Source of the DNA: a virus | Lineage: Duplodnaviria > Caudoviricetes | Strand: one strand, 5' to 3' | Virus record (IMG/VR): IMGVR_UViG_3300014204_000114 | Span: 1 to 64,000 of that record | Length of the DNA: 64,000 nucleotides | Shown: piece by piece, positions 1 through 25,500 of the stretch | How the letters are laid out: each line of letters starts with the position of its first letter | How positions within the stretch are numbered: the stretch's first letter is position 1 | Position numbers and translations under genes: made by a program | The notes under the pieces: generated by a model | Databases searched by the model: none | What the model saw: only the letters and a program-made list of their open reading frames with translations | What the model was told of the DNA's origin: nothing

Positions 1-3000
1 ATAGATGGACCGCCGCCTCCTAAAATACCACCACCCTCAACAAACTTGGCAAAGCCCTTAGTCAAGTAATCCTTAACTGCTACATCACGAGCTAAAAGAA
101 CTTCATTATTAACATTATTACTTAGAGTCCTAAGAGTTCTATCTCTTAAGCCTTTATCTTTGATCCTAAAAAATACAGGCGCATCAGCATCAAGATCCAT
201 ACTTAAGCCGCCCATCAATCCAGACAAAACACCCTCTCCAAATATACTTGATCTATAACGAATAGTATCTTCCAGACCTGATATGAACGTACTAGAAGCT
301 CCTGGATACGATGTTTTGGCTAATGCTTTTATATCAGAGAATAACGCAAATGGAGTATCTGCGGCGGCTGGCATTAATTCGGAACTAATGACCCTGACTT
401 TCGTAGGCTGTAGACTTGTATAACCTTGGACTGGGTGGCGTTCCAAAAGCTGTGCTTCTTCCAAGTACCCTTGATTATAAAGTTTCTGGATATTCCTTGT
501 CATCTCATTCATGGATATATCGCCGCTTTCTACCATCTGCCTAAGCTGTTCTTTATATAACGACTCGGACATATTAACAGTTCTAGCTTCTTCGAGTAGA
601 AGTTTAGTGAATGTTTCAGCCGTAGACCCTTTAGCTTTCCCGGCTAGTATCTTAGCGTTTATTTTATTCATGTCAGCTTTGATCCCGGCAATATCCATAT
701 CTTTAGGCTGAGCCTGAATTTGCACCGAACCTATGATCTTTTCAGCCGCAAGGCCCCTTGCTTTCTTGCCCGCGACTCTTTGACCACCTATATGTAAAGC
801 GTATTGAGTCTCTAACTCTTTCTTTAGAGAGCTTATACTCTTGGACGCATCCTTATCATCCATCATGTCTTGGACTACAGATCTATAAGATTTTAGTATG
901 TCTGTCTCTAAAGGAACTCCGCCTTCACCCTGAGTCATTACTCCGCCTATGTCTTTTAGAGGAGCAAGCAGAATAGAGTTGTTTTTAGAGTTAATTCTAA
1001 GCCATTTGTCTCCCTGATGTCGCGCAAATAAATATCTTTCACCGGCGGATGTGGATAGTTCGGAAGCCTGTATCTTGGAAACATCTACTACTTCTTCCGT
1101 GACACCTTCAAGAACAGTCTTATTATCTATCCCATTGATCATAGACTTTAAGGCTCTTCTCGAACGATAATGCTGTTCCGAATTAGATACTCTGGATTGG
1201 ACATCTTCGACCAATTCGCTCTGTAATCCTTCAAACATAGGATTGACTTTTAGGGCAAGCCACGATCTAGGCTCAAATGATCCCATCCTACCAACGCCCA
1301 TTTCCATAATAGTCTCGCCGGGAGTCGCGTAGTTTAATCCTCTGCCTACGCCTTTAGACATATGAGTCATCGCTATGTAAGCTTCTGCTTCTGGATTCGC
1401 CGCGCCGGATATCTTATACCCTTCCGTTAACGAGCCTAATATGTCTTTGTAGTAAGTGCTCCTAGCCATAGCGTCATCAGTTATACCATAATGTGCTTTA
1501 ATTGCCCCCAAATGAGTAGAGCTTTTCTGGCCTAAAAATGCACCAAGCATACCGACGTCTTGTCTTGAGGCTCCTATAGAACCAGCATGATACATTATAG
1601 CTTTCTCTAGTTCTATACCTCTGTCAGCTCCACCTTTAAGAGTGCTCGGGAGACTATTAATTAATCTTCCGTACTGGTTAAAATCGTCTTTGACGGCACC
1701 TAAATCAGACATTAATGCGGCTGCTCTTTTTGAACTACCCGTAGCCATAATACTGCTAGTCAAGTTATACAATTCAGAAAGCATAATACTATGAACAGAG
1801 CGTCTACGCTTAAGGACTTCTTTCATGCTTGTTAGGGCTTCTGTCCCCGCAAGGTATTTTTGTTCTCCCGTAGATAGACCCTGTATATCGAGAGGCGAGA
1901 AAAATTCCTTTATAGATATTCCGTGACCCTTCCTATGCACCGTCTCTGAGATGTGTTCTATATCCATACGTAATGCCGCACCGGATTCGCCAGGAATTAT
2001 AGACAGTCTTTTAATGTTCATCTTCTCGTAAGGCTTCACTACTAAAGCTTCTTCTGCGAGATTAGTGTCAGCTATCATTTTGGATCTGATAAATTCTACG
2101 GGGTTCTTCTCTAAACCAGCGGACTGATATCCAACAGCCATCCTTTCCGGGTTTGTAGAAGAGCCGCCTAAAACATTACCAAGGTCGAATCCATCTTCGA
2201 ACAGGATCTCTGCATTAGCATAATTTATATCCCTTACTCCAAGTTGAGCTTTCATAGCGGGAGTAAGAGAGGTTTTCTTCTGTATGATGTTTGATAGAAG
2301 TTCTAAATTCTTATTTAAGCCGTAACCTTCGGATCCTAGAAGAAGATCTTTATGGACTGATTTTGCTGAGGTAAATACCTGACCGCCACTTAACGCGGTT
2401 TCGAACCTCTGAGATGTACCTTTCTGGAGAACTCTAGTAACGCCTTCAGGAGCATAACTTCTTAAAGCGTCAGGAATAGCCATAGCCTGTTTATATCTCT
2501 GAGAGACAATACCTTCCGAACGCCAATCTAACATCCTCAAAAGTTCTTCAGACGTATTATTAGTTTCGGCTATATAAGTCGAGTAAAGCTGTAAGGGTGA
2601 GTTGTTAGAGTTTATGTATTTCCAGTCTGCTGTTGGGGCAAATCTCCCAAATCTATTAAAAGCCGTCCCTTCGATTTTTGCCAGAGCTGTATTACTATCT
2701 GTTACCCAAGCGGCTTTCCTGAACTGCCTATGAGGTCTCATATGAGAAGGAAACATTTCGTAGCCGACATCTTCTACGAATGGGGCTCCTCTGGATCCAA
2801 ACATTACCATGCCTCTACCAGCCTGAGTTGGAGACTGTGCTACAAAATGGAACTGAGGAGCTCGCTTACCACTTTTGTATTTGATTGGATCGCCGCCTAA
2901 AAGTCCTCTCTTAAGTTCGTCTAAAGAAGAGGTCTTCATAGGGTCTATCTGCTCTCTTATGGTCTTTGCCGCAGAGAATTTATTCGTATTTATCACTGCC

Positions 3001-4310
3001 GCCTGCTGCCTATATATCTTTTCTTGGGTTTTCCATTCTGGGCCATACCCGCTTATGGGCTGACTAAACGAATACAGATACTCTCTAAAGGCTGCTGTCT
3101 CTCTTTCTGCAGAGACCTTAAATGACGAGGATAAAGTTCCATCAGGTCTAAGATGTTCTTGTCTTAAGAAATCAAGTCTTGGGACTAGCATCTTTTCTGT
3201 AGTATGAGCGACAAACTCATTCCAGTTCATAGCCTGTTTAGAAGCTAAGTCTACGAATAATCCAGGAGCAACTCTTCTGGTAGCCATATGCCCAGAATAA
3301 AATATACTGCCTTTAGAAACAGGAACAGACATAGTTAAAGGATTTGCTAGTCCGGCTACATTAATACCCATTTTAAATTCGAAGGCTTTTGTTGATCCTT
3401 TCTTCATTTGGATAAGCGCCGTAGAGATATCTCTTGTCCGCCATTCCGCCTTTTCTACAGGAGCAATAGAAACAGTATTAGATTTCCCCATTCCCCCATA
3501 TAAACCTTTTATGCTATCTATGGTTTTAGAGAAGATTGCTTTATTGGCTGCCACGGCTGTACTTTTTAAAGATGACTGATAAGACCTAACTAAGCCTAGC
3601 TGATTAAGATCCGGGGCAGAGGAAGCGACCATAGACCCCGACTCAACTGAGCCTCCCATAGCTTGGAGGTTAGATACATACTTCTTAAAGACTGATTGAT
3701 ATACGTCCGCCGAGATGCCAAGACTGGTTCCTAAAGACGAATGTAGCTCCTGCAGGATTTGATTAAAGTGAAGATTCTTGCCTTCTAACGCTCTGAATGT
3801 TTCTCCTATAGTAGAGGGACTATTAGCGTTTAGGTGACCTGTCTGGATTAATGTATTTTTGAATATGTCCTTAAGTGTGCCTTCTGATAAGTTCCCCACA
3901 TTTTGTACAGAACCGAACATATACGCTATAGCTTCATTAGCTTCAGTATAGTTAAGACGATTCAAATTCATCTTATTTATACCAGCGGCTACGTTTGTAT
4001 AATCCATGCCTTGTAGCTTCTCTACGAATCTAGATGTATTACTTGCAATACCCTGCCCTTTTAACGACTTAAATCCTGAGTATATTCTTGAGGTTATCTC
4101 TGCTTGTTCATTAGCTGAGACTTTAGAATTTATATAGTTTGTGCCGCCGATTATATTGGACGCTTTTTGGGCAGTTCCTTTTAATATCGGCATCATCTTA
4201 TAGCCGGTATACCCCAGACCTCCAATCAAAGGAAGAGTCACGGCTAAGTCAGCCGCGTAGTTCCTATGAATCTTTACTTCCTGGTTGTCTATATCAGCCG
4301 GTCTATACAT
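1..4310 (-). CDS. Giant (>=1436 aa, C-terminus outside window) virion protein with two-barrel RNA polymerase-like motifs
   Basis: ATG at 4310 after AGGATAAAGG. The frame (MYRPADIDNQEVK...) is open in every segment I translated and no minus ORF is listed here, consistent with it running off the window. Contains LLERHPVQGYTSLQPTKVRVI (RHP 432-440) and SMDLDADAPVFF (DLDAD 183-197). The CDS is secure; the RNAP call is inference. Confidence 0.75.
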   Translation of the reverse strand, partial: MYRPADIDNQEVKIHRNYAADLAVTLPLIGGLGYTGYKMMPILKGTAQKASNIIGGTNYINSKVSANEQAEITSRIYSGFKSLKGQGIASNTSRFVEKLQGMDYTNVAAGINKMNLNRLNYTEANEAIAYMFGSVQNVGNLSEGTLKDIFKNTLIQTGHLNANSPSTIGETFRALEGKNLHFNQILQELHSSLGTSLGISADVYQSVFKKYVSNLQAMGGSVESGSMVASSAPDLNQLGLVRSYQSSLKSTAVAANKAIFSKTIDSIKGLYGGMGKSNTVSIAPVEKAEWRTRDISTALIQMKKGSTKAFEFKMGINVAGLANPLTMSVPVSKGSIFYSGHMATRRVAPGLFVDLASKQAMNWNEFVAHTTEKMLVPRLDFLRQEHLRPDGTLSSSFKVSAERETAAFREYLYSFSQPISGYGPEWKTQEKIYRQQAAVINTNKFSAAKTIREQIDPMKTSSLDELKRGLLGGDPIKYKSGKRAPQFHFVAQSPTQAGRGMVMFGSRGAPFVEDVGYEMFPSHMRPHRQFRKAAWVTDSNTALAKIEGTAFNRFGRFAPTADWKYINSNNSPLQLYSTYIAETNNTSEELLRMLDWRSEGIVSQRYKQAMAIPDALRSYAPEGVTRVLQKGTSQRFETALSGGQVFTSAKSVHKDLLLGSEGYGLNKNLELLSNIIQKKTSLTPAMKAQLGVRDINYANAEILFEDGFDLGNVLGGSSTNPERMAVGYQSAGLEKNPVEFIRSKMIADTNLAEEALVVKPYEKMNIKRLSIIPGESGAALRMDIEHISETVHRKGHGISIKEFFSPLDIQGLSTGEQKYLAGTEALTSMKEVLKRRRSVHSIMLSELYNLTSSIMATGSSKRAAALMSDLGAVKDDFNQYGRLINSLPSTLKGGADRGIELEKAIMYHAGSIGASRQDVGMLGAFLGQKSSTHLGAIKAHYGITDDAMARSTYYKDILGSLTEGYKISGAANPEAEAYIAMTHMSKGVGRGLNYATPGETIMEMGVGRMGSFEPRSWLALKVNPMFEGLQSELVEDVQSRVSNSEQHYRSRRALKSMINGIDNKTVLEGVTEEVVDVSKIQASELSTSAGERYLFARHQGDKWLRINSKNNSILLAPLKDIGGVMTQGEGGVPLETDILKSYRSVVQDMMDDKDASKSISSLKKELETQYALHIGGQRVAGKKARGLAAEKIIGSVQIQAQPKDMDIAGIKADMNKINAKILAGKAKGSTAETFTKLLLEEARTVNMSESLYKEQLRQMVESGDISMNEMTRNIQKLYNQGYLEEAQLLERHPVQGYTSLQPTKVRVISSELMPAAADTPFALFSDIKALAKTSYPGASSTFISGLEDTIRYRSSIFGEGVLSGLMGGLSMDLDADAPVFFRIKDKGLRDRTLRTLSNNVNNEVLLARDVAVKDYLTKGFAKFVEGGGILGGGGPS

Positions 4311-4320
4311 CCTTTATCCT

Positions 4321-7300
4321 TTAAAAGCTAGAAACCATTCTAGCAGTTCTATTTCTAGCTTCATCTCTACTATCATGCCTAGCTCTATTATACGCTCTTC
4401 CTATGTTTATATCAACGCTATTGCCAGAAGGAGATCTAGAAGAAAGTAACTTAACGTTCGCGCCGGATATGCCTTCAGCGTTAAACAGATAGTCTTTCAT
4501 TTCTCTTACTAATTGTGTAGGGGATCTTCCATCCGAACTTTTCATTATCTCGTCCATAGCCATATTGTTGACCACTGGCTTATAGGGTAAAGATCTGGCC
4601 CTTTTATCCCATAACGAGAACTGGTGATGATCATAACCTTGCTCTTCTACGAACTTCAGTTTAACGTCGTCAAGATCTACAGCCGGATGGAACCCAACAA
4701 AAGATGGAGAAGGTAGAGAGTTCTGAGCGAAGTATTCGTCTGTCTGCCCGCGGCTATATTTGTTATATAAGTCAGCCTTTAGCTGGACCTTCTGTATAAA
4801 ATCCTGAGCCCCCTGCACATCCTTAATCGAGCCGTTTTCTATACCCATCTGTATAGCCTGAGCGTCAGCCACTTCCCAACGAGCACGATAGAAGTCTCTC
4901 ATCTGTTTCGGTACCGCCCGGATTATTCTCTTTCTGTCAGCTTCATCAGTAGCACTCGCAAACTCGTTGAAGTACTTCTTCTCCTCGGGAGCTATAGCTC
5001 TAAAAGCTTGGTACTTAGCCATAGGCTCGTAAGGATTTAATCCAGTAACGCTTTCTTTCGCCATAGCGTAGTATCTTTTAGAAGCCTCTAAATCACCTAT
5101 TTCTTTAGATGCGGTAGAAAGAGCTTGATACTTCTCATATTTTAACTTATCGAAATACTCGTTAATTCTGTCCTTTTCTTTAACATCGTCGGGACGGTCA
5201 TTCATACCAAAGGCATGACGCATGGCAGTAACAGTCGGAGATAAGAAGTCCCTTACGGGGTGTCCCCAAAATGCATTCTGGCTTCCCCAGACATTAAATC
5301 TCTCGTACTCTTCTATAGAGGTTCTAGTATGAGTGAATTTAGATAAAGGAGAAAGCGGCGTTGCAAACATTGCCGGAGTTTCAGCTACGTCATATAACGT
5401 CTTCCAGTACCAACCAAATAGAGACCCCTTCCTTGCGTTTCTTTCCGCCGAGGTAGAGTTCGTTATTTCGTAAGCCTGCTGAGACATGAACTGAGATACT
5501 GCAGAACTCATGCTCCCTGATAGAGGATAAAATTCAGACTCGTATCTATCATTAGCCATCTTGTCGGCTATATCCGCAACTTCAAGTTCTCTGTCCGAAA
5601 GTAGCTGTCTTGTTCTTAGTTTCTTTACTTCGCCTCTATAGTACTTGAACTGCTCGCTACTTGCAGCAACATTAGCCAGAATATGATATCTATAAACTGT
5701 GGGATAATCTTCCGGATCTACGCCTTGTAATTCAGGGAAGAAGGACTCATATCCACCACCGGGTAGAACAGCATCGCCCCAATTAACCTTCTTATAAGGA
5801 TCGCCGGTTTTAAAGTTTTTGTGGTACTCTTCCCCAGGCATCCATTGAGGTTGGCTGTTTTCGATTGGATTGTATCTATCTACATTCCTCTCAGAAGTAT
5901 AGAAACGTCTTATAAACTCGGTTGTGCCAGGATCTCCAAAATCCCATCTCCAGAAGTTGCCAACTGAAGATGTCATCCTATTAGAATCATCCATAATTAG
6001 AGAGTCGTTCATAAATTGTTGGCTTCCGGTTATGCGCTCTTGAATAGTTTGCGCCATAAAGCCCGTCAAACCAACAACATCTTCCACTTTATTTAACGTC
6101 TCGTCTAATTGATATCCTAGATTTCCCGGTTCAATTGGAACGCCCATCTGGCCGCCGTATTCCATTAACGCGCCGCCAGTACCGCCTGCTCCCCCAGGAC
6201 CACCCCAATCCTCCTGATGCATATATGCAGAAGGCCTAAAAACCTGACCTATAGTAGCAGATAAAACCCCGCCAATAATAGGCACGTCAGAGAAAGCCCC
6301 GCCCACATAAGGATAAGGTCTATCCCAATAATGCTCTATCTGATAGTCATAAGTAAAGTTCTTTTTGTACCATCTGGTGACTGGAGAGTCATCTCCGTAG
6401 AGGGTTTGTTCGTCAGGTCTATGTCGAAGTATAGCAAGCATATGAGGTCTATAATACTGATTATAGTCACCTTCAAAAGCATTCCTACCAAACAGCCACC
6501 AGCGTCCTCTTTTTACAGGAACCCATTCTTCTCCGGAATAAACAGCTTCTTTTTCTTCTGCTGTTTTACTAGGTAATAACGCGCCGGGCAAGAACGGTAA
6601 TACTAAAGCCGCGCCTACCAAAGCCCCTATCTTAGCCATGCCTGCTACGCGGGAGCCATATCTTATAACCTTGTTTCCTTCTATGATCTTGACTTGGTCT
6701 GCGAGAGTGCCACCGCTAAGAGTCTTTGTACCTCTTAAGATTTCTAACTCTTGGTCTGTAAGGGTGACTTTTTTAGGCTCGCCTAGTATCTTACCTATTA
6801 TAGGAGTGTCTTTAAATCTCTCATAGAAGGACTTGTTCTGCTGCCATTCCCATTGTGCTATTTTTTCAGCTGCTTTGTCCGCGCCAGCTATTGAATTATC
6901 AGCCATGAATCTGGCTAATTGAGCTTGCCTTTTGATTCCTCCATACATTGCCCCAACAAGACCGAATTCGAGAGGGAATCCTGCCAGCTTTAGTATGTCT
7001 GTGCTGCCGGGAGCTTTACTTTCCTGCCAATCTCTATAAGGTTTTAGAGGAGAAAGAAGTTTCGAATAAGTAATACTAAGGCCGCCTAACGCATCTCCAA
7101 CCCCGGAAGAATACCCAGAGTTGAACATGCTTGTCATGCCGCCAAGTGCCCCTAATGCTGCTAATCCAACACTTCCATACTTAACTGTTTTCCATGGTAA
7201 TTGTAATAAGCCGCCGGCAAGTAATCCTACAGCAGCTCCGCCAACAGCACCCCCAACCATAGCAACAGGTCCAGCTTCCTGTTGAGCTCTCCACCAATCC

Positions 7301-8430
7301 CACTGCTGATAGCCAGTATGCGCCGCGGCAAGACCTACAGCCTTACCTACTATACGGAGAGCTATCATTCCAGGAGGACCGGATTTAACTCCAAGTCCTT
7401 GAGGACCAAGTATCTTACTTAGTCCAGGGAAGAAATCTACAGGACTCTTAGCTAGTCTGTTAAACCTCTCAAGTTGCTCTGTAAAGAATGTAGAGACAAA
7501 GGCTTTTCTATCTTTAAGCACTACGAATGGGTTACGATACTTTACGGATGTGCCGCCTTCTTTTTCTAACCAGTAAGGAGCACCGCCGTATGCCCACGGA
7601 GCGCCAGGTAAATTAACGTTTGTAAATGCCTTCCCGCCAAATCCAAGAGTCTTAGCGAGAGCTTCCCCAACTCCAAAAAACCCAGTCCCAGCGACTCTCT
7701 TCTCAGCTATCCTCACGCCTTCAGCTATTGTATCTAGTTCTTTTGAGAGTCTGCCGGTTTTGAAGTTAAAGATGCCAAATTGTAAGGTGCCTTTTTGCCC
7801 GGCTCCGCCAGCTTTAAAATATACGCCAAAAGCTTCATCCGCAGTTGTTGTGTACTTGCTTCTATAATGCTTTGTGATATCTTCGAGGCTTCCAAACTTC
7901 TCGCCTTTGCCTACTAAAATATCTTTCCATATATGCTTTTCGCCAGCGGAAGGAGTGTACTTTAGCTGTTTTTCGTAATTAGAAGAACCTACGGAACTTA
8001 GGATTGAGCTTGTGACGTCTCCTGTAATAGAAGACATCGGAACGAATCTGGACGTAGCTGAGGCTCTGGAAGTGAACTGGGATAAATATTCAGACCCGCG
8101 GAAGGTTCGTCCTAAATACATAGGACTCATTTCTTCAGCGTAGGTAACTAGGTTGTTTAAGTAGTCAAAACCAGTCTTGCCAGTTTTGCCTATTTGCATC
8201 GGGAGAGCATATTTGCCGGCGCCATAAACAGCCGCTCCAAATGCACCCATTTTCAGGATGTTACTTAGGGGGCTATGACGAGGAGTTTGTTCTTGTGTAG
8301 AGAAACCGTAATTTTTATTTACTGGAGGGCCGGAAGAATTAACAAAAGCACTATAAGAGAATCCTCCTATGCCACTTTCATCAAAAGCGGCTGGATAATT
8401 CAGCCTATAAAAATTATCATTTACTGCCAC
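4321..8430 (-). CDS. 1369-aa tape-measure-like / ejected virion protein
   Basis: Directly downstream of the tail chaperones; several Gly/Ala-rich hydrophobic segments; helical C-terminal half. Confidence 0.6.
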   Translation of the reverse strand: MAVNDNFYRLNYPAAFDESGIGGFSYSAFVNSSGPPVNKNYGFSTQEQTPRHSPLSNILKMGAFGAAVYGAGKYALPMQIGKTGKTGFDYLNNLVTYAEEMSPMYLGRTFRGSEYLSQFTSRASATSRFVPMSSITGDVTSSILSSVGSSNYEKQLKYTPSAGEKHIWKDILVGKGEKFGSLEDITKHYRSKYTTTADEAFGVYFKAGGAGQKGTLQFGIFNFKTGRLSKELDTIAEGVRIAEKRVAGTGFFGVGEALAKTLGFGGKAFTNVNLPGAPWAYGGAPYWLEKEGGTSVKYRNPFVVLKDRKAFVSTFFTEQLERFNRLAKSPVDFFPGLSKILGPQGLGVKSGPPGMIALRIVGKAVGLAAAHTGYQQWDWWRAQQEAGPVAMVGGAVGGAAVGLLAGGLLQLPWKTVKYGSVGLAALGALGGMTSMFNSGYSSGVGDALGGLSITYSKLLSPLKPYRDWQESKAPGSTDILKLAGFPLEFGLVGAMYGGIKRQAQLARFMADNSIAGADKAAEKIAQWEWQQNKSFYERFKDTPIIGKILGEPKKVTLTDQELEILRGTKTLSGGTLADQVKIIEGNKVIRYGSRVAGMAKIGALVGAALVLPFLPGALLPSKTAEEKEAVYSGEEWVPVKRGRWWLFGRNAFEGDYNQYYRPHMLAILRHRPDEQTLYGDDSPVTRWYKKNFTYDYQIEHYWDRPYPYVGGAFSDVPIIGGVLSATIGQVFRPSAYMHQEDWGGPGGAGGTGGALMEYGGQMGVPIEPGNLGYQLDETLNKVEDVVGLTGFMAQTIQERITGSQQFMNDSLIMDDSNRMTSSVGNFWRWDFGDPGTTEFIRRFYTSERNVDRYNPIENSQPQWMPGEEYHKNFKTGDPYKKVNWGDAVLPGGGYESFFPELQGVDPEDYPTVYRYHILANVAASSEQFKYYRGEVKKLRTRQLLSDRELEVADIADKMANDRYESEFYPLSGSMSSAVSQFMSQQAYEITNSTSAERNARKGSLFGWYWKTLYDVAETPAMFATPLSPLSKFTHTRTSIEEYERFNVWGSQNAFWGHPVRDFLSPTVTAMRHAFGMNDRPDDVKEKDRINEYFDKLKYEKYQALSTASKEIGDLEASKRYYAMAKESVTGLNPYEPMAKYQAFRAIAPEEKKYFNEFASATDEADRKRIIRAVPKQMRDFYRARWEVADAQAIQMGIENGSIKDVQGAQDFIQKVQLKADLYNKYSRGQTDEYFAQNSLPSPSFVGFHPAVDLDDVKLKFVEEQGYDHHQFSLWDKRARSLPYKPVVNNMAMDEIMKSSDGRSPTQLVREMKDYLFNAEGISGANVKLLSSRSPSGNSVDINIGRAYNRARHDSRDEARNRTARMVSSF

Positions 8431-9205: not shown

Positions 9206-9625
9206 TTACATCGCAACAACCATCCGGAGTGCAAGCTGGGTAGGAATGAAGTGAGATGCCGCGTATATAGATTCAAGAAGCGTCGGTATTGTACCGGCCT
9301 TACCTTCGAGTATACTCTCATCCGTAAACTTAGGCCAAATAACGCACTTCTTAACTACTTCAGCGTCCCTATCAAATTGCTTACCTTCAGCCTGTGCCTG
9401 GGCGGCTGCTGTTTCGATTTCGATATGTTCTTTTCTCCGGAGGGTTTTCCAGACGTAGATCTCATTGACGTCAAGAGGCATAACATATACATTACCATAT
9501 GCTTTCTTCCATTCATCTATGACTTCTTTGGTGGGCGCCCCGGGGATTTTAGCGAGAGCTTCGTAGATAGCTCCCTGATCATTTGCTTCCATACTTTCCT
9601 GTGTCATTTCTTTTTCTTCTGCCAT
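9206..9625 (-). CDS. Tail assembly chaperone
   Basis: Acidic 139-aa protein between the tube genes and the long tail gene; AAGGAG RBS. Confidence 0.65.
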   Translation of the reverse strand: MAEEKEMTQESMEANDQGAIYEALAKIPGAPTKEVIDEWKKAYGNVYVMPLDVNEIYVWKTLRRKEHIEIETAAAQAQAEGKQFDRDAEVVKKCVIWPKFTDESILEGKAGTIPTLLESIYAASHFIPTQLALRMVVAM

Positions 9626-9656: not shown

Positions 9657-9685
9657 ATTATAGCATCATTCTATTTTTTGTGCAA
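9657..9685 (-). promoter_or_regulatory. sigma70-type promoter TTGCAC-17-TATAAT with extended -10 TG
   Basis: Minus strand ttgcac...tgcTATAAT upstream of the RBS of the gene starting at 9625. Confidence 0.6.
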
Positions 9686-10385
9686 TGAATTTATACTCTT
9701 CCTGAATTGGGATACCATTAGCTTCTATAACTTTACCCATAGAGATGATATTAACGCTTTTTAGAGTCTCTGAGGTTTGCGACCCTGTTATATTCTCATC
9801 GCCATATGTTATTTGTATATCGAACGGCACTTTAAATATGTCTTTTAGCTCCTGAGTCCCATAACTACCGTCGTTTGGGAGCGATCCCGCATCCGTATTA
9901 AGTTCGTCACCCCAAAAAGCACTTTTCAGAGACTCTACGACAGCGTCACCACCTTCTATATGACTATCCTCATTAACTAATGTTTGGCTTAATATATAAG
10001 GAATGTAGTTCTTAAATCTAAAATTAACAGTAAACGAGCCTTCGACCAAAACCCTGCCAAAAGATACAGTATCGTAATATTCAGATCTGTATCCGTAGAT
10101 AGGAGTTTTCTCCTGCATGAAGTTGTACATAATGCCGGAGAGATCATCTATATAAACATTGTTTATCACCAGTCTTACGTCAGTCCCAGACCTAAAATCC
10201 ACGTTGTAAACATGCATAAACTCTATAGCTTTGAAGGGGTCTGTCTTAACTGGTGTAGAAGAAGCTGTTACTGAATTAGCAAAACTATCATAATTGTCTT
10301 TGTATTTCTGAGCATAAGTCCCTATCATATAGCCGATATTGTCGACGGTTGAGGAACGAGGTTTTAAGCTGTCACCCACACCCAT
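9666..10385 (-). CDS. Tail tube-like protein (tube initiator/baseplate hub paralog)
   Basis: SGTD...QEKTPIYGY...G-x-V-x-V-x-G...PFDIQI motifs parallel the tube protein. Confidence 0.6.
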   Translation of the reverse strand: MGVGDSLKPRSSTVDNIGYMIGTYAQKYKDNYDSFANSVTASSTPVKTDPFKAIEFMHVYNVDFRSGTDVRLVINNVYIDDLSGIMYNFMQEKTPIYGYRSEYYDTVSFGRVLVEGSFTVNFRFKNYIPYILSQTLVNEDSHIEGGDAVVESLKSAFWGDELNTDAGSLPNDGSYGTQELKDIFKVPFDIQITYGDENITGSQTSETLKSVNIISMGKVIEANGIPIQEEYKFIAQKIE

Positions 10386-10388
10386 AAT

Positions 10389-11210
10389 TTACCTATTAGT
10401 ATCGTAAAATTTCAAAGCTGTCGACGCTGAGATTCTTCCATCCGAAGCCGAAGCAGGATTATCTTCGTCTATACTATAGATGTAATCAGTGTTTCTCATC
10501 GGAGAATAATCTTCAGCAATAAAATTAGTCGTCTTTTCTATAAACATGTTGTGAATAGAAAGTACAGTAGATTCGGACATGAACTGTACGCCGAATAATT
10601 TTAGCACTGAAGCTTTTGGTTGTCCTGTGTCGGACATATACTCGTTGTTAAATAACACTATTAAATCTAAAGGTGGAACCTGATCTGCAGAAACATAAGC
10701 TCCTCTTGTGCCTCTGTCGGAAAGAGAAAGTCTAATATTATTTTGTGTAACTAACTGATATAAGGTATCCTGAGCGAATTCTACAAATACCATCGTCCCA
10801 GCTATTCTTCTTACTCCTTTAGTATAACCTAAAGGTTTTACGCTACCACAACCAGAAACAGGATTTTTTTCTCTAAAGATTTGGAATGATAATGTCTGTA
10901 CGTTTGCTAATTTAGTAAACACGATACCTAGCCCAGAAGTATTCTGAGTCTTATTAGGATCATATACTATTTCCACATCTTTAAGTTGTTCTTCGGAGAG
11001 ACTTTGAGTTCTGGTAACTCCCGACTTAATTGTAGATGCGTAGTTTTGAAGAGTCTTTATTTGAGAGTCATCGAAACCAGAAGGCTCATTACCAGGCAAT
11101 TTATAAACGACTACATATACGGAAGCGTCAGCTCCACTAAAGTTTCCGATAGTGAATCTTTCCCTATCGTCCGGATAAATACTTCTTGTTTGTAGTCTAC
11201 TAAGATCCAT
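10389..11210 (-). CDS. Tail tube-like protein (paralog)
   Basis: FSGAD, REKNPV, KGVRRIAGT and DQVPPLD motifs shared with 11265-11966. Confidence 0.65.
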   Translation of the reverse strand: MDLSRLQTRSIYPDDRERFTIGNFSGADASVYVVVYKLPGNEPSGFDDSQIKTLQNYASTIKSGVTRTQSLSEEQLKDVEIVYDPNKTQNTSGLGIVFTKLANVQTLSFQIFREKNPVSGCGSVKPLGYTKGVRRIAGTMVFVEFAQDTLYQLVTQNNIRLSLSDRGTRGAYVSADQVPPLDLIVLFNNEYMSDTGQPKASVLKLFGVQFMSESTVLSIHNMFIEKTTNFIAEDYSPMRNTDYIYSIDEDNPASASDGRISASTALKFYDTNR

Positions 11211-11264: not shown

Positions 11265-11966
11265 TTAAACGTTGCTATTCTCATCCTGGACTTCTGTAGC
11301 TACTATGCTATCAGGAGTAGGATCGCCCGCAGTCCAAGGTAGGATCTGGCGAGCAACATACTGCATCTGCATTTCTGTCACTAGGTCGTCAATCGAAATG
11401 CCCGAACCTTCATTCAGCACTTCCACGCCTATGATTTTCATAAACGTAGTCGCACCGTATTCATTAGCTCCTAAAAGCGTAATGTCGAAAGGCGGGATCT
11501 GATCAACATACCAAGGTCTGACAGCTTGCTGATCGAACGAAGCATCATCGCCGAATAACTCTTCTGTCTGATAAGAGAAGAACGTGCCCGCAGTAGCGCT
11601 TATTTCCGCAGCGCCCTGATTAACAAGTTGCAGCTGCGAATTCAACGTAGCTTGTTCTCCATCAGTAACAGCATAGTCCCAAGCGATCTCATCGTTGTCA
11701 GCAGAGAATTTGACCCTGGCGACAGAATGGTTCAGCAAGGCGTGTTTATCGAACTCGATAAAGATCAACGTCCCTGCTATGCCTCTTTTGCCTCTGGAGA
11801 AAGCCCTGGGATCAGCGCCACCCATAGTATATATAGGGGCCTTCTCCCTCTGGATTGAATACGATATAGCCTGTAAGGTACCAATTACTTGGCTCCCAAA
11901 CACGGCCTTCATATCAACTCCAGAAAAACTATTGTAGGACTTTCTATAAGTATTTATACTTGGCAT
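11265..11966 (-). CDS. Major tail tube protein
   Basis: Immediately follows the sheath; FSGVD...REKAPIY...RGKRGIAGT...DQIPPFDI; AGGAGG RBS; terminator after. Confidence 0.8.
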   Translation of the reverse strand: MPSINTYRKSYNSFSGVDMKAVFGSQVIGTLQAISYSIQREKAPIYTMGGADPRAFSRGKRGIAGTLIFIEFDKHALLNHSVARVKFSADNDEIAWDYAVTDGEQATLNSQLQLVNQGAAEISATAGTFFSYQTEELFGDDASFDQQAVRPWYVDQIPPFDITLLGANEYGATTFMKIIGVEVLNEGSGISIDDLVTEMQMQYVARQILPWTAGDPTPDSIVATEVQDENSNV

Positions 11967-11980
11967 ACTTTAAGTCCTCC

Positions 11981-13873
11981 TTAAGCTTTGTTAAGAGACA
12001 GCTTCACGAAGATTTGTCTCAATTCAAACGCAGGAACGAGTACCAATTCGACGGTTGCGTTGCCCTGTACCTGCTCAATGACCGTAGCGGTTACGTTGCT
12101 AGAGAAGCGGGTCAGACGACCAGCCTTCTGCAATTTCGCCAACTCGGCATCGATAGCAGTCTTGAGAGCAAGCCTACCAGCCTTACTTGTCGCTTCGCCG
12201 ATAAACGGCATACCAACGGCTCTTACTCTGTCGATGACTTCCTTAACTATCTTAACGGTCGAAACCCTTCGATAGTCAGAATCCTGACGAGCAAAAGTCG
12301 GGGCATCAGCGATAACTATTTGTTTGTTGCGAGACGTAAGCATCGTGTACTTAACGCCCGCCAGCTGATCATTCTTCTGATTACGAACGATGAACGGAAG
12401 CTTAATACCATTCTCTACCTTATTCGTAGGAGCGCTATTTGCCGGCAACGCAGATACCTTAGACAGGTACTTCGAAGCGTAAGTAGCAACATATCCGAAA
12501 CCGGTAGTGTCGATAGGATTGAAGTAATAGACATACTGCGGAACAACGGCAATATATTTGCCGATGTCTATGATATGACTATTATCATCCAATTCATCCG
12601 TGCCATCGAGATATCCAGAATCCGTTGCGACCATTCCGCCGTAATTAGATCCGGATCTATAATACGAAGAACCAGCAGCAAACTTATTACCCAAAAGACC
12701 CGTTCCGTTATCAGCGGAAGCCGCTATGGTATAAATACCAGTCGCAGGATCAAGAGTATAAGTCGGGAGCTTGCCTATCCAGGTAGAGATATCCGCGAGA
12801 GAGAAACTGTTAGGCGGCAGAGTGCCGATAGCACTAAGCGCTTCGTTTACATTCTCTGAATAAGTATACAGGAAGTTTGCAAGCTGATAACCGAAGTTAG
12901 CTTCATGCCAATCTCCAGAAGTGATAGACGTGCCATCAATCTTAAGAGTGGCAGATGCCGAACCAACATTCGGCCAAACTTCTGCGATGTTATCATTGTC
13001 GATGTCCCAGAAGAAATAATCTTCGCCGCCATACTCTTCAGTAAAATACCTTCCAAGTACGTCGTTGTTCGTAGCGGCTGTCGGATAACTGTGACCAGAA
13101 ACCCATACGCCCGAGTTATTCCGGAAAGCAGCATCGATTCCACTTATTACGGTAGAGTTCGGAGTGCTTCCGTTTATCTGAGTATTAACATCGTCAAGAT
13201 ATATGTCCATAGGAAGGACATAATCAAACACCACGTTTTCCAGGAGCTGATACGATTCATGGAGAGCTTCGAAAAGCTTCATCCTAGAAGGATCAACACC
13301 ATCTGTTCCGGCGGTATAAGCGGTTCCGGCCGTGACGACACTAGCCATCACGACAGGAGCTGAAACAGTACCAATGTCTGCTCCAGCAGCACCAGCAGTT
13401 CCACTTACTGAAACTTCATTCGCGTCTATACGGTTATCCGGAGTGTCGGGGTCGTTATCGTAAATAAGTTCCCCGGTCACAGTGTTCCAAACCATCAATC
13501 GACCTTCAGAATTGCTCCAAAACAGTTCATAATGGCTTCCAGCGGAATCATCTTTTTCAACTGTTTCAAGAGTAATACCAGCAGCGCCTGAAGTATCGCC
13601 AATATGCTCTAACTTGGCAGACGTAGCGTTGATTCTGAAAAGTACAATATTTTTGGCTTGGTCGGCAGTCTCGTACATACCACGGATCAATGTCCCTTCG
13701 CGTCCGAACGCGGAAGCAGCATCAGAAGTCCTAACGACAGTATAAGGCGTGTCAGAAGGACCATCTTCAGCAGTTCCGAGGATGAGGAATATGGGACCAT
13801 CAACCTGAGTGGCTACATAGAGATTACCGTCTTGTTTCTTAGGGAAGATCCCAGACAGATTACTGTAAGCCAT
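11981..13873 (-). CDS. Contractile tail sheath protein
   Basis: 630 aa; N-terminal ILGTAEDGP...P; C-terminal FIGE...LVPAFELRQI sheath signature. Confidence 0.9.
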   Translation of the reverse strand: MAYSNLSGIFPKKQDGNLYVATQVDGPIFLILGTAEDGPSDTPYTVVRTSDAASAFGREGTLIRGMYETADQAKNIVLFRINATSAKLEHIGDTSGAAGITLETVEKDDSAGSHYELFWSNSEGRLMVWNTVTGELIYDNDPDTPDNRIDANEVSVSGTAGAAGADIGTVSAPVVMASVVTAGTAYTAGTDGVDPSRMKLFEALHESYQLLENVVFDYVLPMDIYLDDVNTQINGSTPNSTVISGIDAAFRNNSGVWVSGHSYPTAATNNDVLGRYFTEEYGGEDYFFWDIDNDNIAEVWPNVGSASATLKIDGTSITSGDWHEANFGYQLANFLYTYSENVNEALSAIGTLPPNSFSLADISTWIGKLPTYTLDPATGIYTIAASADNGTGLLGNKFAAGSSYYRSGSNYGGMVATDSGYLDGTDELDDNSHIIDIGKYIAVVPQYVYYFNPIDTTGFGYVATYASKYLSKVSALPANSAPTNKVENGIKLPFIVRNQKNDQLAGVKYTMLTSRNKQIVIADAPTFARQDSDYRRVSTVKIVKEVIDRVRAVGMPFIGEATSKAGRLALKTAIDAELAKLQKAGRLTRFSSNVTATVIEQVQGNATVELVLVPAFELRQIFVKLSLNKA

Positions 13874-20519: not shown

Positions 20520-22525
20520 ACGTTATTTCCTCCTTGGTTTTTCTTCTTCTGAATCTCTTCAACAAGTTTCTTAAATTCGTCAGCGTTTGCAGGGATTAAA
20601 CGCCGAGCCGCAGCATCTTTAAACAGCCTATCGGCTGCTATTTGTCCGTTATTAAGCAATGTTTCGTGCCATTTTTCTACGAAATTCTCGACTACTTTCT
20701 CGTCATATTGAACAACTCTGGAAGTAGCCTCGACAGCAATTGTGGGATCCGGCACAGCGCCAGTTGGCACCCTGCTCATCCCATCTCTGATCTTACCTGT
20801 AATTTTAGAAATGTCAACACTTTCGATAAGTTTAGTTGCAGAAAGTTCAAGTGCTTCCACGCCGAGTTTAATGTTGTCCGCTCTTAAATCTTCGATAGGT
20901 TTCGCGTCAAGTTTTTCAGCGGTACCTAAAAATTCAAGAAGCGCATTATAGTCGGATAAAAGCGCCCGATATTTCTTTAGAAGCTTAACATGGTTGTCTC
21001 TTATTGATTCGGAATCGCTAGAGAGAACTTCCATATCTAACTTAAAAGCTTCTAGCTGAGTTGTCATTTCGTTAATCTTCGCTTCTAGAGGCTCTTTGGT
21101 ATTCTTTACGCTTTCGGTAATAAGAGTCTGATGCTTTTCGTTAAGTTCTTTTTCAAGTTTAACAAAGTCCTTTTCGCTCTTATCGCAGCCTAAGCCTTTA
21201 GCTTTACGACTCACGCAAGCAAGTATTTTTTCTTTACTACCAGGGCCTTTATATCGACCTATAAGTCTACGCGCAGCTACAACTTTCGAACACGATGTTA
21301 CAGGGAAGGACCGGTTGGGTCCGCAGAACGCGCTGTTAGGCAATCGTTTCCTTTGGGCCGCAGAAAGCTTAGCGTCGTCAAGCTCTTCAGGTTTTACACC
21401 CTCAGCCTCAGCGACTTCATTCTTAATATATTCTTGCTCCTCAGGCTCCATTTCTTTAAACATAAGCTGATAAATAAAATCAGCTTCGTCTTCTGTGAGT
21501 TGTTCCGAGGATATGTCTATCGTGTCGAAATCTAGAGGTTTGTTTTCTGCGGTGGCCGCGGGCGGAGTTGCAGGCGGAGTGGTATCGCAGTTGCAAGGAG
21601 GAGCAGGAGGATCGGTTACGGGAGCACTATCTGCCAGATTAATCGTAGGTTTAGAAGAATCAAATAATGATCCGTCGCCGCCTACCATAAACGACATAGT
21701 CGCATCCAGAACTTCGTAGTCTTTAGCTACTATCGAGTAATCCTTCTTTTCTTTATCCTGGAATACGCCAGAATCACCGGCATTATCCTGAACAGAATTA
21801 AGAATCGAAGAAACTCTTGCGTAGACGTCAGCAGGACGATTGACAAAAGATACTTCGTCGTACATTAAACTGCCGACGATAAGATACATTTCCTGGCCGT
21901 CATGGATAGTCCCGGGATAATGATCGCAAGGACCGTCAACTACCCAGTCTTGCTTGCATATACTGCAAATCGCAGAGTCGGATACTGCGCCAATCGAAAC
22001 TGTTGAATGCCTGCCGTCCATAATCTTTTCGGCTGCATCCTTATCCGATATAGCTACAGTTAAACGAATATGCCCCAAACCACTATACGAATTAGAAAGC
22101 TGCTTGTCTCTTGTTATATTATCGATAAGATCGCCGACAAATTTTACTCTATCGACTACAGGTAACGCTTCGTCAGAGACAGCATTAATCAAAGTATTAT
22201 ACTTATCTGCTTTCTTTCCTTCTTTCTTCTGTATGACCATGCCCGAAGTATCTATATACTCCGAATTAATAACCCTGCCTATAGGATCAGTCATATCGTT
22301 ATGATGTAACTGAACGGGTTTTGGGTATGGGCTCACAAAAGATTCCGCGCCGTTTCTCATTTTATCGGGAAGATAAAAAGTATGGTTGCGCGTGATTATA
22401 CCGGCGTGAGTAGCGTCAATTGTTACATATAACGTCTTACCGGCATTTAAACCCTGTAATACAAAGTCCTTCTGTTCGTCTGAAGGTTTAGGGACTTTGC
22501 ATGTTGCATCGAAAATATTAAACAT
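20516..22525 (-). CDS. Prohead protease / scaffold fusion
   Basis: HND...PIGR, TVSIG, CSIC...CDHYPG and EVSFVNRPAD protease motifs; coiled-coil C-terminus. Confidence 0.8.
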   Translation of the reverse strand: MFNIFDATCKVPKPSDEQKDFVLQGLNAGKTLYVTIDATHAGIITRNHTFYLPDKMRNGAESFVSPYPKPVQLHHNDMTDPIGRVINSEYIDTSGMVIQKKEGKKADKYNTLINAVSDEALPVVDRVKFVGDLIDNITRDKQLSNSYSGLGHIRLTVAISDKDAAEKIMDGRHSTVSIGAVSDSAICSICKQDWVVDGPCDHYPGTIHDGQEMYLIVGSLMYDEVSFVNRPADVYARVSSILNSVQDNAGDSGVFQDKEKKDYSIVAKDYEVLDATMSFMVGGDGSLFDSSKPTINLADSAPVTDPPAPPCNCDTTPPATPPAATAENKPLDFDTIDISSEQLTEDEADFIYQLMFKEMEPEEQEYIKNEVAEAEGVKPEELDDAKLSAAQRKRLPNSAFCGPNRSFPVTSCSKVVAARRLIGRYKGPGSKEKILACVSRKAKGLGCDKSEKDFVKLEKELNEKHQTLITESVKNTKEPLEAKINEMTTQLEAFKLDMEVLSSDSESIRDNHVKLLKKYRALLSDYNALLEFLGTAEKLDAKPIEDLRADNIKLGVEALELSATKLIESVDISKITGKIRDGMSRVPTGAVPDPTIAVEATSRVVQYDEKVVENFVEKWHETLLNNGQIAADRLFKDAAARRLIPANADEFKKLVEEIQKKKNQGGNNV

Positions 22526-25500
22526 CAGTTATTCTCCTCTTGTTCTATTTTACAGACACAGCCAAAATGGAAAGGCGGGATATCCTCAATAGAAAAGTTT
22601 TTGTTTTCAATATCGAGAACAGCGCGCTTACAAATCTTACATTCTTTATCTTCGCCAGCTATTATTGTTTTAACTCCTAAATCGCTAAAGGCACATACTT
22701 TACCAATATTATATGCCTTCGAACTCTCAGTCTCGCTAATAAATACCAATCTATAAGTATAGGAATCTAATATGCTATTAGCTAAATTTATCTTATCATT
22801 AATATCATTACTGTCAATACTTAGAATTTTAGAAGTTACATCGTTAAATAGTTTTCTTACAAAAGAATCTATTCTGTTGCCGAATTCAGTTTCCCATTTT
22901 CTTATTACGTAAGGACTCGCTATAGGTCCGGATTTAGAATCCTTATATCCATTAATAAGAGCGCTTTTAACTAAAAGTTTACACTCTCTTGTTAGAAGAG
23001 ATTGATGTAGTTCGTTGTACGCTTTTATAGAAGACGCGTTCAGAGAATTATCATTAATAAGTTTTACTATAACATCTCTGTAACTGTCCCACGCACTTTT
23101 TATATTTGAAGAAGATTCTTTATCCCAAAATCTATAAGTCTTATTAAATAAAAGGTTTAAAAGTGTTATAAAACTATACATGCCTGAAACTATATCTTTT
23201 GTAGTCCCGGGAGCCAACTTCTTTCCGTGTTGGTTAGAAGGTTGATCTTTTGATTTTGCTTCTGATGCCGCACCAGATTTAGCTTTTATATTAGAAGAAC
23301 TATTCTCAGAATAAGGTTCGTCAATAGACTGCATAAGAACTTCGGGCTTTTTAAATAATTCCCAGTAGGTCCTTTTAAACTCTTCTTCGTCCAAAGGTTC
23401 TCTTGAGAGTTCCCTACGATATTCTTCGAAGGTTATACCGTTACTATTGAAACAGTTAGTGGCATGATTTTCAACTTTAATTCTTGACTCAAGATCTATT
23501 TCGTTAAATCTGATTCTGACGATATTCTTCTCGTCTAATACAGTGTCACCAAAAGTCGACTCTAGTAATAGCTCTTTAATTATAAATTCATTTACGAATG
23601 TTTCGAAGACTAATTGGAAGTCTTTTACATCATCAACCGCAGCTCTGGAAAGAGTGTCAGCTGTCGCACGATTAGTTGAATTCCCCTGAATAGTAGTTTT
23701 ACCATTCCTACGAGTTACAAATAAGTGGTTAGGTACATTATAACAATAAATCATACCGTCATAAGAACATTTAGATATCATTTTTGAGTCTATGATCCTA
23801 TATGTCTTGCCGTACCCCCCGCTTATCAAAACTCTATACATATAGCCGTCTGGGTTTAAAGATCCCTTTTGATTTTTATATTTAGCAACTTTAGCCATAT
23901 ACCCTAAAGACATAGCCAAGACCTGGACGTCATTAGCAAGCCGCTCACTTGACGTAAAGTAAGTAGAATTTATTTTAGGATACTTATAGCAAACATATCC
24001 GTCTCCTGCTAATAGAGATGTTAATAAGGACTTCCTAGACGCCTTGTCCCAAGAAAATATTTCTCTAGGAAGGTTCTTATTTTTTGCGCCATGGCCCACT
24101 CTATCCCTAAAATACTCATAAATATTTTTGCCGTATATCTTGACACAAATACTTTTACTGTGTTTGACCCCACAAAGGGAGCTAATCGAGGTATCTCTTT
24201 TATCTTTTTTACAACTATAAGTAACTCCTATACGATCCAAGAGAGAAAGAATAGAGTCTAGTTTTTCCCCAGAATTCTGAGTTATATTAATTCGGTAAAA
24301 GCTTCTATCTCCATTATACTTATCTAAATTACCTTCTGAAACGAACCAGCCTACAAAAGAAGCCCAATCCTGCATCGAACAAGTGATAGCTTTTGACTTT
24401 CTGCCTCTTTTAACTTTGGCTGAAGGTAGATGGAACTGGATATCACCCTTCTTTTTCATTTCTGCAAACTCAGCAGTCTCAAGCATTAAAAACTCACTAT
24501 ATTCTCCATCAAGCAAATCCATAGCCTTGACTTTATGCCAGTTGGGTCCTAAAAACTTATTATCTAAAGAAGACCTATGACAAACCCACATCTCGTGGTG
24601 AGGCGTAACTTTAATATCAATATGCTTACCGTTAAAACAAATCATATCCCCAACATATCTACCCTCGTATTTATATGTTGCTGTGTGAAATTCTATTAAT
24701 TCGGTCTCTGGGTTATAAGTAGCTATTTTTTCTACAGAATGATCTATCTCATTATGAAATTTCCAGCCATTCTCAGTGAGGGTCATCGTTAATTCATCAT
24801 GACAATCGCCCTCGCCGAAGTCTACAGAAGACATTGCAAGTCCTGTAAAGACTCTGTTTTTAAAATGCTGTATGTAGGTTTCTACTTGAAGAGCTTTACC
24901 CTGAGCACCAATTGGAGTTATCTTATATCTTTCGCTCGTTACTATAGCTCCCTCGGAAGGCATGTATTGAATTTGACCCCTAAGGACCGCTATTTCAGAT
25001 TCACCTTTTTCGTTTATCCCCGCGGGTTTATCTTCCGTACCAACTTGAAAATGATAGAGAGGGAATAGGTACTCATATATTAAAAGTTCTACGTCTTCTT
25101 CTATTCTACGAAGAATCTGTATATCTTCTTTTACTGGAATAATTGATGGGCGCCCAAAAACAAATCCGGGCTTCCTATCATAATAAATATGTACTATATC
25201 TTCTTTATTGAAATTAACTGTCTTCCCGTAGAGTTCCTGTACCCATCTTTTTATATTCTTACTCTTGTCAATTTCAGCTTTAACGGTTTCAGCGGGGACT
25301 ATAAAATAACCAGCGATAGGCTTAAGTTCTTTTCCGTTTTCAGTTCTGATTTTGCCGCCGGAAGAGCTTGTATCTCTGACTTTAGCTACAAGAGTATTCG
25401 AAATCTTTATCAAGGAAGAAGCCATATCCCTAAAGAGAATCGCTGTTGGGATACTTGTGGCCGCGGATATCTGACGGAACCTTTCCTTAACGTAGCTTAT

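Follow-up and report, generated by a model that had tools for sequence, protein, structure and literature searches.

Two-barrel RNA polymerases (RNAPs) delivered by the virion are known from crAss-like podoviruses, from phiKZ-like phages, in which they are multisubunit, and from one Thermus siphovirus. Gp96 of phage P23-45 is a virion two-barrel RNAP fused to a tape measure (PDB 8H2M/8H2N; Chaban et al. 2024, PMC10770324) and, according to the model put forward for it, transcribes the first genes while the DNA is entering (PMC10770324). In Bacillus phage 0305phi8-36, gp146 was annotated as a 'hypothetical tape measure protein' from its length and position and was seen in virions by mass spectrometry (PMC2147016, Hardies et al. 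2007). For 0305phi8-36, a 2021 survey of jumbo phages gave only the YonO-like enzyme, and that group was said to lack RNAP subunits (PMC7824862). In this study, we analyzed the first 64,000 bases (hereafter the window; bases 1-64000) of the 187,794-bp virus record IMGVR_UViG_3300014204_000114 (Caudoviricetes), which is rated 99% complete, focusing on the minus-strand gene at its beginning. The 1,834-amino acid (aa) product of this gene is referred to as giant B, and the neighboring 1,369-aa protein as giant A. A preliminary description of the window had proposed that this gene encodes a fused, highly diverged two-barrel RNAP with a DLDAD active site, probably packaged and injected, and had compared it with the RNAP of phi14:2, a crAss-like phage. 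We established that giant B contains a β′-type catalytic module, and our literature search found no paper describing the giant B family as a polymerase.

Giant B and its positional orthologues

The preliminary description claimed a minus-strand open reading frame (ORF) of at least 1436 aa with four polymerase-like motifs. The ORF listing confirmed a frame of 1436 aa at 3..4310, with an ATG start and an open 3′ end, and all four motifs were found in it at the positions given below. Extension of the contig showed that the frame crosses the two ends of the record, where 2 + 1 bases form the junction codon, and gave a full length of 1,834 aa; the remaining 398 residues are encoded at the opposite end of the record (G000:C1:186600-187794 = L002:16601-17795, minus strand). 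An identical 1,834-aa gene is present, unbroken, in an independent ENA contig. Because the frame is open across the ends and an uninterrupted copy exists, we regard the record as circularly permuted and the gene as whole. The record is classed as 'linear' though giant B runs in frame over both ends with an exact junction. Giant B contains zero Cys residues, no internal repeats, and a single strong transmembrane segment (residues 1698-1716). Its features within the window are as follows.

3..4310, minus strand: giant B gene, residues 1-1436 of 1,834, from the ORF listing and the extension across the record ends.
4200..4259, minus strand: N-terminal Gly/Leu-rich hydrophobic segment, residues 18-37, YAADLAVTLPLIGGLGYTGY; a similar one is present in the L010, L011, L012, and ME3 orthologues.
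1899..1973, minus strand: candidate β-like block, residues 780-804, LRMDIEH...RKGHGISIKEFF, with K794 and K801; aligned to the family K-x-F-G-x-x-K and resembling β GDKMAGRHGNKG.
1251..1298, minus strand: GVGRMGSFEPRSWLAL, residues 1005-1020, resembling β GGQRFGEMEVWAL; the family conserves G1005 and G1007, and the predicted local distance difference test (pLDDT) score of the model is 81-87.
3..1127, minus strand: β′-like module within the window, residues 1062-1436 (whole module ~1062-1658), from profile and model matches.
723..788, minus strand: GGQRVAGKKARGLAAEKIIGSV, residues 1175-1196, family segment aligning to β′ GKQGRFRQNLLGKR; G1194 is kept in 55/63.
555..587, minus strand: ARTVNMSESLY, residues 1242-1252, aligning to β′ LHQCGLPKKMALELF.
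387..449, minus strand: LLERHPVQGYTSLQPTKVRVI, residues 1288-1308, counterpart of β′ LLNRAPTLHRLGIQAF; RHP at 432-440, with strands predicted on either side.
183..197, minus strand: DLDAD (D1372, D1374, and D1376), predicted Mg-binding triad, invariant in 63/63; the mean pLDDT of the 10-residue model block is 95.

Giant B proteins of different lineages showed no BLAST similarity to one another, and the hub protein alone found nothing when used as a query for related loci. Positional orthologues were collected using the giant A alignment as a synteny anchor. A large ORF lies directly after giant A in 76 of the 80 IMG/VR loci fetched, and about 65 positional orthologues were recovered, from which 63 polymerase cores were aligned. 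D-x-D-x-D, most commonly as DFDGD, is present in 58 of 61 unique complete giant B ORFs and is mostly preceded by R-x-P. It is located 373-731 aa from the C-terminus in nearly all 58, the exception being the short form L091 (145 aa). Some members retain classical motif forms, namely, KLEB27-3 (NRYPTINQSTIQAMKV...ADYDGD), WH1 (NRYPT...ADHDGD), and L010 (GRHPFIGENSLQQ...DKDAD). A plain tape measure with chance motifs was our first working reading, and it was dropped when conservation of the triad among the positional orthologues became apparent.

The family profile built without giant B found giant B with an expect value (E) of 1.4e-42 in one collinear match covering residues 975-1732, and the same family profile, to which KLEB27-3 gp034 and ME3 gp36 had not contributed, found those proteins at 3e-28 and 5e-8, respectively. 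An alignment-based profile search of a set of 5.8 billion proteins returned WH1 gp095 and giant B itself and nothing else. A Pfam search of giant B and four larger orthologues detected no domain, exonuclease included. Cys is absent from 58 of the 61 unique sequences (1,100-3,200 aa), which is far from chance; this scarcity may reflect unfolded passage through the tail or periplasm.

The aligned orthologues share only 12-19% identity with giant B, and the mean column identity is ~10%. Nevertheless, D1372, D1374, and D1376 are invariant in all 63 aligned positional orthologues. The Pro of R-x-P (P1293) is kept in 62/63 cores and the Arg (R1291) in 51/63, and several Gly residues are conserved in 53-62 of the 63. 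Thus, the two motifs on whose conservation among homologues the preliminary description had staked its proposal are both conserved. One D-x-D-x-D in a protein such as giant B (4.4% Asp, 1,834 aa) is not beyond chance, as ~0.16 are expected, or about one protein in six; the significance of the triad therefore lies in its conservation across 63 diverged orthologues and not in its presence in one protein.

Homology to the RNA polymerase β′ subunit

Using the family profile against all PDB sequences, we detected the β′ half-subunit of the non-virion RNAP of phage AR9 (E 2.3e-8) and bacterial β′ (E 7e-4). The AR9 match spans the GK.G.LR....G.R segment, N-R-x-P-T, and DxDGD. RNAP largest subunits make up 33 of the 36 PDB chains listed for the profile, and one more is P23-45 gp96 (E 2.7). 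The profile without giant B beat 300/300 shuffles on residues 296-470 of Escherichia coli RpoC, and it did not achieve this on RpoB or on the YonO-like gp99. Pfam PF00623 (RNA_pol_Rpb1_2) was the top match, below threshold, at the motif in KLEB27-3 gp034; it was the second of the two matches listed for WH1 gp095. In these alignments, RHP corresponds to NRAPT, which supports its earlier assignment to N-R-x-P-T, ARTVNMSESLY aligns with the β′ CGLPKKMALEL segment, and DLDAD corresponds to DFDGD; three of the four motifs first described are thus placed on β′ segments.

An AlphaFold model based on the family alignment had a pLDDT of 68.9 and a predicted template modeling score of 0.65, with pLDDT values of 85-95 around the barrel. 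The Foldseek list for this model was led by AR9 β′ (E 9e-3, probability 0.99) and consisted almost entirely of β′ chains. A second structural alignment gave Z scores of 8.4-10.3 to Rpb1, β′, and QDE-1 over model residues 191-787. In a VIA search of 48,161 chains, which is independent of Foldseek, two-barrel RNAPs accounted for each of the 7 chains with Z ≥ 8 and filled ranks 1-15 without exception. The structural matches run from the N-terminal part of β′ to the trigger-loop region. The preliminary description had tied its proposal to a double-psi β-barrel (DPBB) fold, and in the alignment-based model residues 1194-1384 form one: isolated DPBB domains align to the predicted model there (7dww_A, Z 5.7, 83/86 residues, root-mean-square deviation [rmsd] 2.9; 7dbo_B, Z 5.2). 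This predicted barrel and the invariance of the three Asp residues in 63/63 sequences support the proposal that DLDAD is the catalytic metal-binding triad. In the model, residues ~1062-1658 are a very diverged β′-type module that is, judging by motif conservation, catalytically intact; the predicted module contains the GK..R..G segment, the R-H-P strand, DLDAD in the DPBB, and long helices aligned to the bridge-helix/trigger-loop region.

A candidate β-like barrel upstream of the β′-type module

In the clade nearer to giant B, a strand followed by K-x-F-G-x-x-K is conserved upstream of the β′ module, and h-G-G...G-x-G-R-x-x-S-x-E-P-R-x-F is conserved ~210-230 aa farther downstream. The leave-one-out profile aligned RKGHGISIKEF (K794 and K801) and GVGRMGSFEPR of giant B collinearly with these blocks (E 7e-12). 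The two blocks resemble β GDKMAGRHGNKG and GGKAQFGGQRFGEME, which in E. coli β are ~225 aa apart. The best alignment of the upstream region by both hhalign and HMMER was to RpoB 1050-1080 (GDKMAGRHGNKG), which was non-significant, and language-model look-alikes gave no support for a β-like barrel. Judging from these sequence blocks, residues ~700-1045 (K794/K801 and GVGR) probably supply a second, β-like barrel, which would make giant B a single-chain enzyme. Of the proposed fused two-barrel RNAP, the catalytic barrel has thus proved homologous to β′, and the β-like barrel lacks significant profile or fold support.

The tail module around giant B

The phage, a jumbo myovirus with a tail sheath, belongs to the lineage of Bacillus phage 0305phi8-36. 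Its genes run on one strand in the order terminase, portal with a putative LAGLIDADG intein, major capsid, sheath, three tube paralogues, chaperonin-like gene, and giant A, followed by giant B, a hub split in two with a transglycosylase, and baseplate J. The sheath and hub proteins match the same jumbo phages: 0305phi8-36, WH1, Edson, and KLEB27-3 (Bacillus), ME3 (Acinetobacter), and MTATph1 (Moorella). The order sheath, tube paralogues, chaperonin, giant A, giant B, hub, and baseplate J is syntenic in 0305phi8-36, ME3, WH1, KLEB27-3, and MTATph1, the five fetched records that were compared; the Edson region was left out. The location of the gene among tail genes, as first described, is thereby confirmed. 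The flanking proteins are homologous as well (giant A, E 2e-70; hub, E 7e-39; chaperonin, E 6e-16). Because of this synteny and the homologous neighbors, giant B occupies the slot of 0305phi8-36 gp146, flanked on one side by a conserved giant virion protein and on the other by the baseplate hub. The neighboring genes are as follows.

4321..8430, minus strand: giant A, 1,369 aa, homologue of ME3_35 and 0305phi8-36 gp145, with Gly-rich hydrophobic segments; synteny anchor.
9206..9625, minus strand: tail chaperonin-like gene, 139 aa, homologue of ME3_33 and 0305phi8-36 gp143/gp144.
9666-10385, minus strand: tail-tube paralogue 1, from position and homology to 0305phi8-36 gp140/gp141.
10389-11210, minus strand: tail-tube paralogue 2, on the same grounds.
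11265-11966, minus strand: tail-tube paralogue 3, on the same grounds.
11981-13873, minus strand: tail sheath gene.
22525-25836, minus strand: portal gene, 1,103 aa, with LAGLIDADG domain PF14528 (E 2e-12; best stretch, residues 604-673).
32364-35657, minus strand: 1,097-aa protein with a Cas4/RecB-like nuclease match (phrog_1706, E 1e-11).
L002:10804-16601 = G000:C1:180803-186600, minus strand: split baseplate hub, ORFs of 1,044 aa (transglycosylase) and 887 aa.

All giant B proteins, gp146 included, have a common C-terminal layout of a single Gly/Ala-rich hydrophobic segment, a Pro-rich linker, and a short terminal domain, with the hydrophobic segment 116-135 aa from the C-terminus. The C-terminus of giant B beat 500/500 shuffles against the profile of this end of the family, and several giant B proteins also carry an N-terminal hydrophobic segment. 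Giant B did not match tape-measure models (Pfam PF10145, PF06791, and relatives, and PHROGs) at E ≤ 1 or 0.01. Giant A is far better conserved than giant B, with ~30% identity across IMG/VR and many invariant Trp, Pro, and Gly residues. It has no Pfam, PHROG, or PDB match and may be the protein that truly measures the tail, or else a channel in the membrane; no paralogy was found between giant A and giant B. The hub is one protein of 1,900-2,330 aa in 0305phi8-36, ME3, WH1, and KLEB27-3 and is split here. The three tube paralogues match phrog_9206, labeled 'major head protein', a label that looks wrong by their position and their gp140/gp141 homology. The LAGLIDADG homing-endonuclease domain suggests an intein inside the portal protein.

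Other polymerases in this phage and its relatives

Searches of this genome with Rpb1, Rpb2, RNA-dependent RNA polymerase (RdRP) family, and sigma-70 region 2 models found no other RNAP and no sigma factor, and no paralogue of the giant B polymerase core was found. A search for T7-type RNAP (PF00940) was also empty, but the control genomes were silent as well, so that this result is uninformative. A separate YonO/RdRP-type RNAP (gp99; PF05183, E 1e-20) occurs in just one of the five cultured relatives, 0305phi8-36. The polymerase core is absent from the giant B proteins of 0305phi8-36 (gp146; L004, EF583821.1) and MTATph1 (CDS0027; L006, OR602862.1), so that the core is dispensable for the tail function. 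In MTATph1, a transposase gene breaks up the giant B region.

Proposed function and alternative explanations

We consider it reasonably likely that giant B is a modular tail-module protein that joins the β′-type module to a probable β-like barrel and to tape-measure-like parts and serves as an injected early transcriptase. The tape-measure-like part consists of the N-terminal ~700 residues, the helix at 1698-1716, the Pro-rich linker, and the last ~70 residues, and it shares its architecture with 0305phi8-36 gp146. The database entries for WH1 gp095 and KLEB27-3 gp034 name them as virion or structural proteins, and gene position and these annotations of relatives suggest that giant B is packaged and that the phage probably injects its own transcription enzyme, a strategy for which experimental demonstration comes only from a Thermus phage of a very different kind. 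In the mechanism that we propose, the C-terminal end would anchor the protein in the tail lumen or baseplate. Contraction of the sheath would expel giant B, and the C-terminal helix would enter the cytoplasmic membrane. The polymerase module could refold on the cytoplasmic side and would transcribe the first genes of the entering DNA without the host RNAP, as proposed for P23-45 gp96 (PMC10770324). A broader proposal, which we hold to be evenly balanced between right and wrong, is that a large unannotated family of jumbo myophages, ME3, WH1, and KLEB27-3 included, replaces or extends the tape measure with a membrane-held, tail-delivered, single-chain two-barrel RNAP that would drive early transcription, and perhaps DNA entry, at the site of injection without host RNAP. 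As part of that proposal, giant B would be the only RNAP-like gene of this phage, and the core-less 0305phi8-36 would have its YonO-like enzyme instead.

Several results weigh against an injected single-chain polymerase. By itself, giant B had no match in Pfam, PHROGs, PDB sequences, or GenBank phages (tblastn). A word-indexed search of the 5.8 billion proteins found no relative, only giant B itself, and an exhaustive phmmer search with residues 635-1834 against 1.84 billion representatives likewise returned only the query. Modeled by AlphaFold without an alignment, the protein gave an unusable pLDDT of 37. The Z values of 8-10 are accompanied by a high whole-chain rmsd and fall in a range where helical models match by chance; the structural case is therefore based on the uniformity of the hits and their agreement with the independent sequence profile, not on the Z values alone. 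The spacing from RHP to DLDAD is 78 aa, compared with a family median of 53. For the β-like region, hhalign against RpoB gave E 0.54, 67/300 shuffles scored as well, and the upstream alignment found nothing in PDB sequences and, searched per member, nothing in Pfam. The sole equivalent shown in virions by mass spectrometry, gp146, lacks the polymerase core. Finally, a crude 11-mer scan of intergenic DNA revealed no repeated phage-specific promoter motif.

Significance was reached on the β′ side alone, no sequence matched better than the β′ half-subunit of the AR9 RNAP, a split enzyme of a jumbo phage, and giant A always adjoins giant B. These points would fit a β′-like subunit whose second barrel comes from a separate partner (for instance giant A, or some other protein of the phage or the host), as is the case for the split phiKZ/AR9 RNAPs. 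We regard such an arrangement as unlikely, if worth keeping in view, because the region upstream of the β′ module has conserved Lys-Lys and GxGR blocks at a β-like spacing, single-chain RNAPs (RDR2, QDE-1, gp62, and gp96) align from model residues 84-134 onward, and no Rpb2-type domain was found in the genome. As for giant A as the β subunit, its profile found no RNAP in PDB sequences, which ruled against it. A structural tail protein (a tape measure or a lumen or membrane-channel part) bearing a dead polymerase relic would suit the tape-measure slot, the ability of gp146 and MTATph1 CDS0027 to manage without the core, and the tape-measure clusters among the language-model look-alikes (0.84-0.88, which are leads only). 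Such a relic is hard to reconcile with three invariant Asp residues, a nearly invariant Pro and Arg, and invariant Gly in 63 sequences whose mean column identity is ~10%. This conservation therefore indicates an enzyme under selection, and since no other RNAP was found in the genome either, we think a relic distinctly improbable.

An active two-barrel enzyme with a job other than early-gene transcription, be it that of an RdRP, of a primase, or of a motor that pulls DNA, has a similarly low probability in our view. The best structural Z scores do include the RNA-dependent RDR2 (9.5) and QDE-1 (8.5), and PolD DNA polymerases are also two-barrel enzymes. However, the family profile matches DNA-dependent β′, with the GK..R segment among the matched parts, and fails to match the YonO/RdRP-type gp99. 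Furthermore, all phage two-barrel enzymes studied to date transcribe DNA (PMC10770324). The idea that an orphan ORF carries these motifs by coincidence is scarcely credible: one such protein in six would carry D-x-D-x-D and giant B alone matches nothing, but the leave-one-out match (E 1.4e-42), the invariant triad, the β′ match (E 2e-8), and the predicted DPBB refute this explanation.

If giant B is an injected transcriptase, the solution known from other virion-delivered two-barrel RNAPs would also occur in a different, widespread lineage of jumbo myoviruses, where the polymerase would be hidden in gene databases under the labels 'tape measure', 'virion structural protein', or 'hypothetical'. 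The passage of a polymerase of ~1,000 residues through a contractile tail tube would become an experimental question. Since the family has cultured members, direct tests are feasible of whether early transcription resists rifampicin, what the virions contain, and whether the enzyme is active in vitro. The family would also add a very divergent, Cys-free branch to the tree of two-barrel polymerases.

Comparison with known two-barrel RNA polymerases

The phi14:2 comparison made in the preliminary description holds for a single-chain, diverged two-barrel virion RNAP (gp66) encoded among tail genes with a non-Gly triad, although the second barrel and the packaging are predictions in the case of giant B. 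It fails in other respects: this phage has sheath, tube, and baseplate J genes, so that it is neither a podovirus nor crAss-like, and the giant B gene lies in a tape-measure slot. The sequence and fold matches listed did not include gp66, and homology to it was not tested directly. RDR2 (Z 9.5) and QDE-1 (Z 8.5) have the single-chain two-barrel arrangement that is predicted for giant B and align from model residues 84-93 onward. By contrast with giant B, QDE-1/RDR2/YonO-type RNAPs are not fused to tail-protein parts, and the family profile matches neither the YonO-like gp99 nor Pfam RdRP.

The AR9 non-virion RNAP β′ (PDB 7S00/7S01) and bacterial β′ resemble giant B in the GK.G..R....G.R segment, N-R-x-P-T, and the DxDGD barrel. 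Giant B differs from β′ in having no zinc-binding Cys residues, in the 78-aa insertion that its barrel carries between R-x-P and the triad, and in its fusion to tail-protein parts, and neither a clamp nor any other peripheral domain was detected in it. 0305phi8-36 gp146 occupies the same slot between homologous neighbors, likewise contains no Cys, and has the same C-terminal layout, but it has no D-x-D-x-D and no match to the polymerase profile, and its phage possesses the separate gp99.

P23-45 gp96 is, like giant B, a giant protein in the tape-measure slot with a very diverged single-chain two-barrel RNAP found via DxDxD, the second barrel being a prediction in giant B. The match between the two is weak (structural Z 5.4-5.7, sequence E 2.7) and no better than that to other two-barrel RNAPs, and their sequence similarity is not significant. 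P23-45 is a siphovirus with an 800-nm tail, and gp96 comprises 5,002 aa with the RNAP in its N-terminal part, whereas the phage studied here is a jumbo myovirus and giant B comprises 1,834 aa, of which the predicted RNAP occupies the central and C-terminal two thirds and precedes a transmembrane helix. P23-45 further encodes a non-virion RNAP as a paralogue; searches of this genome yielded none. Because the giant B gene lies in the tape-measure slot, gp96 is the closest precedent for giant B, nearer than the crAss-like RNAP.

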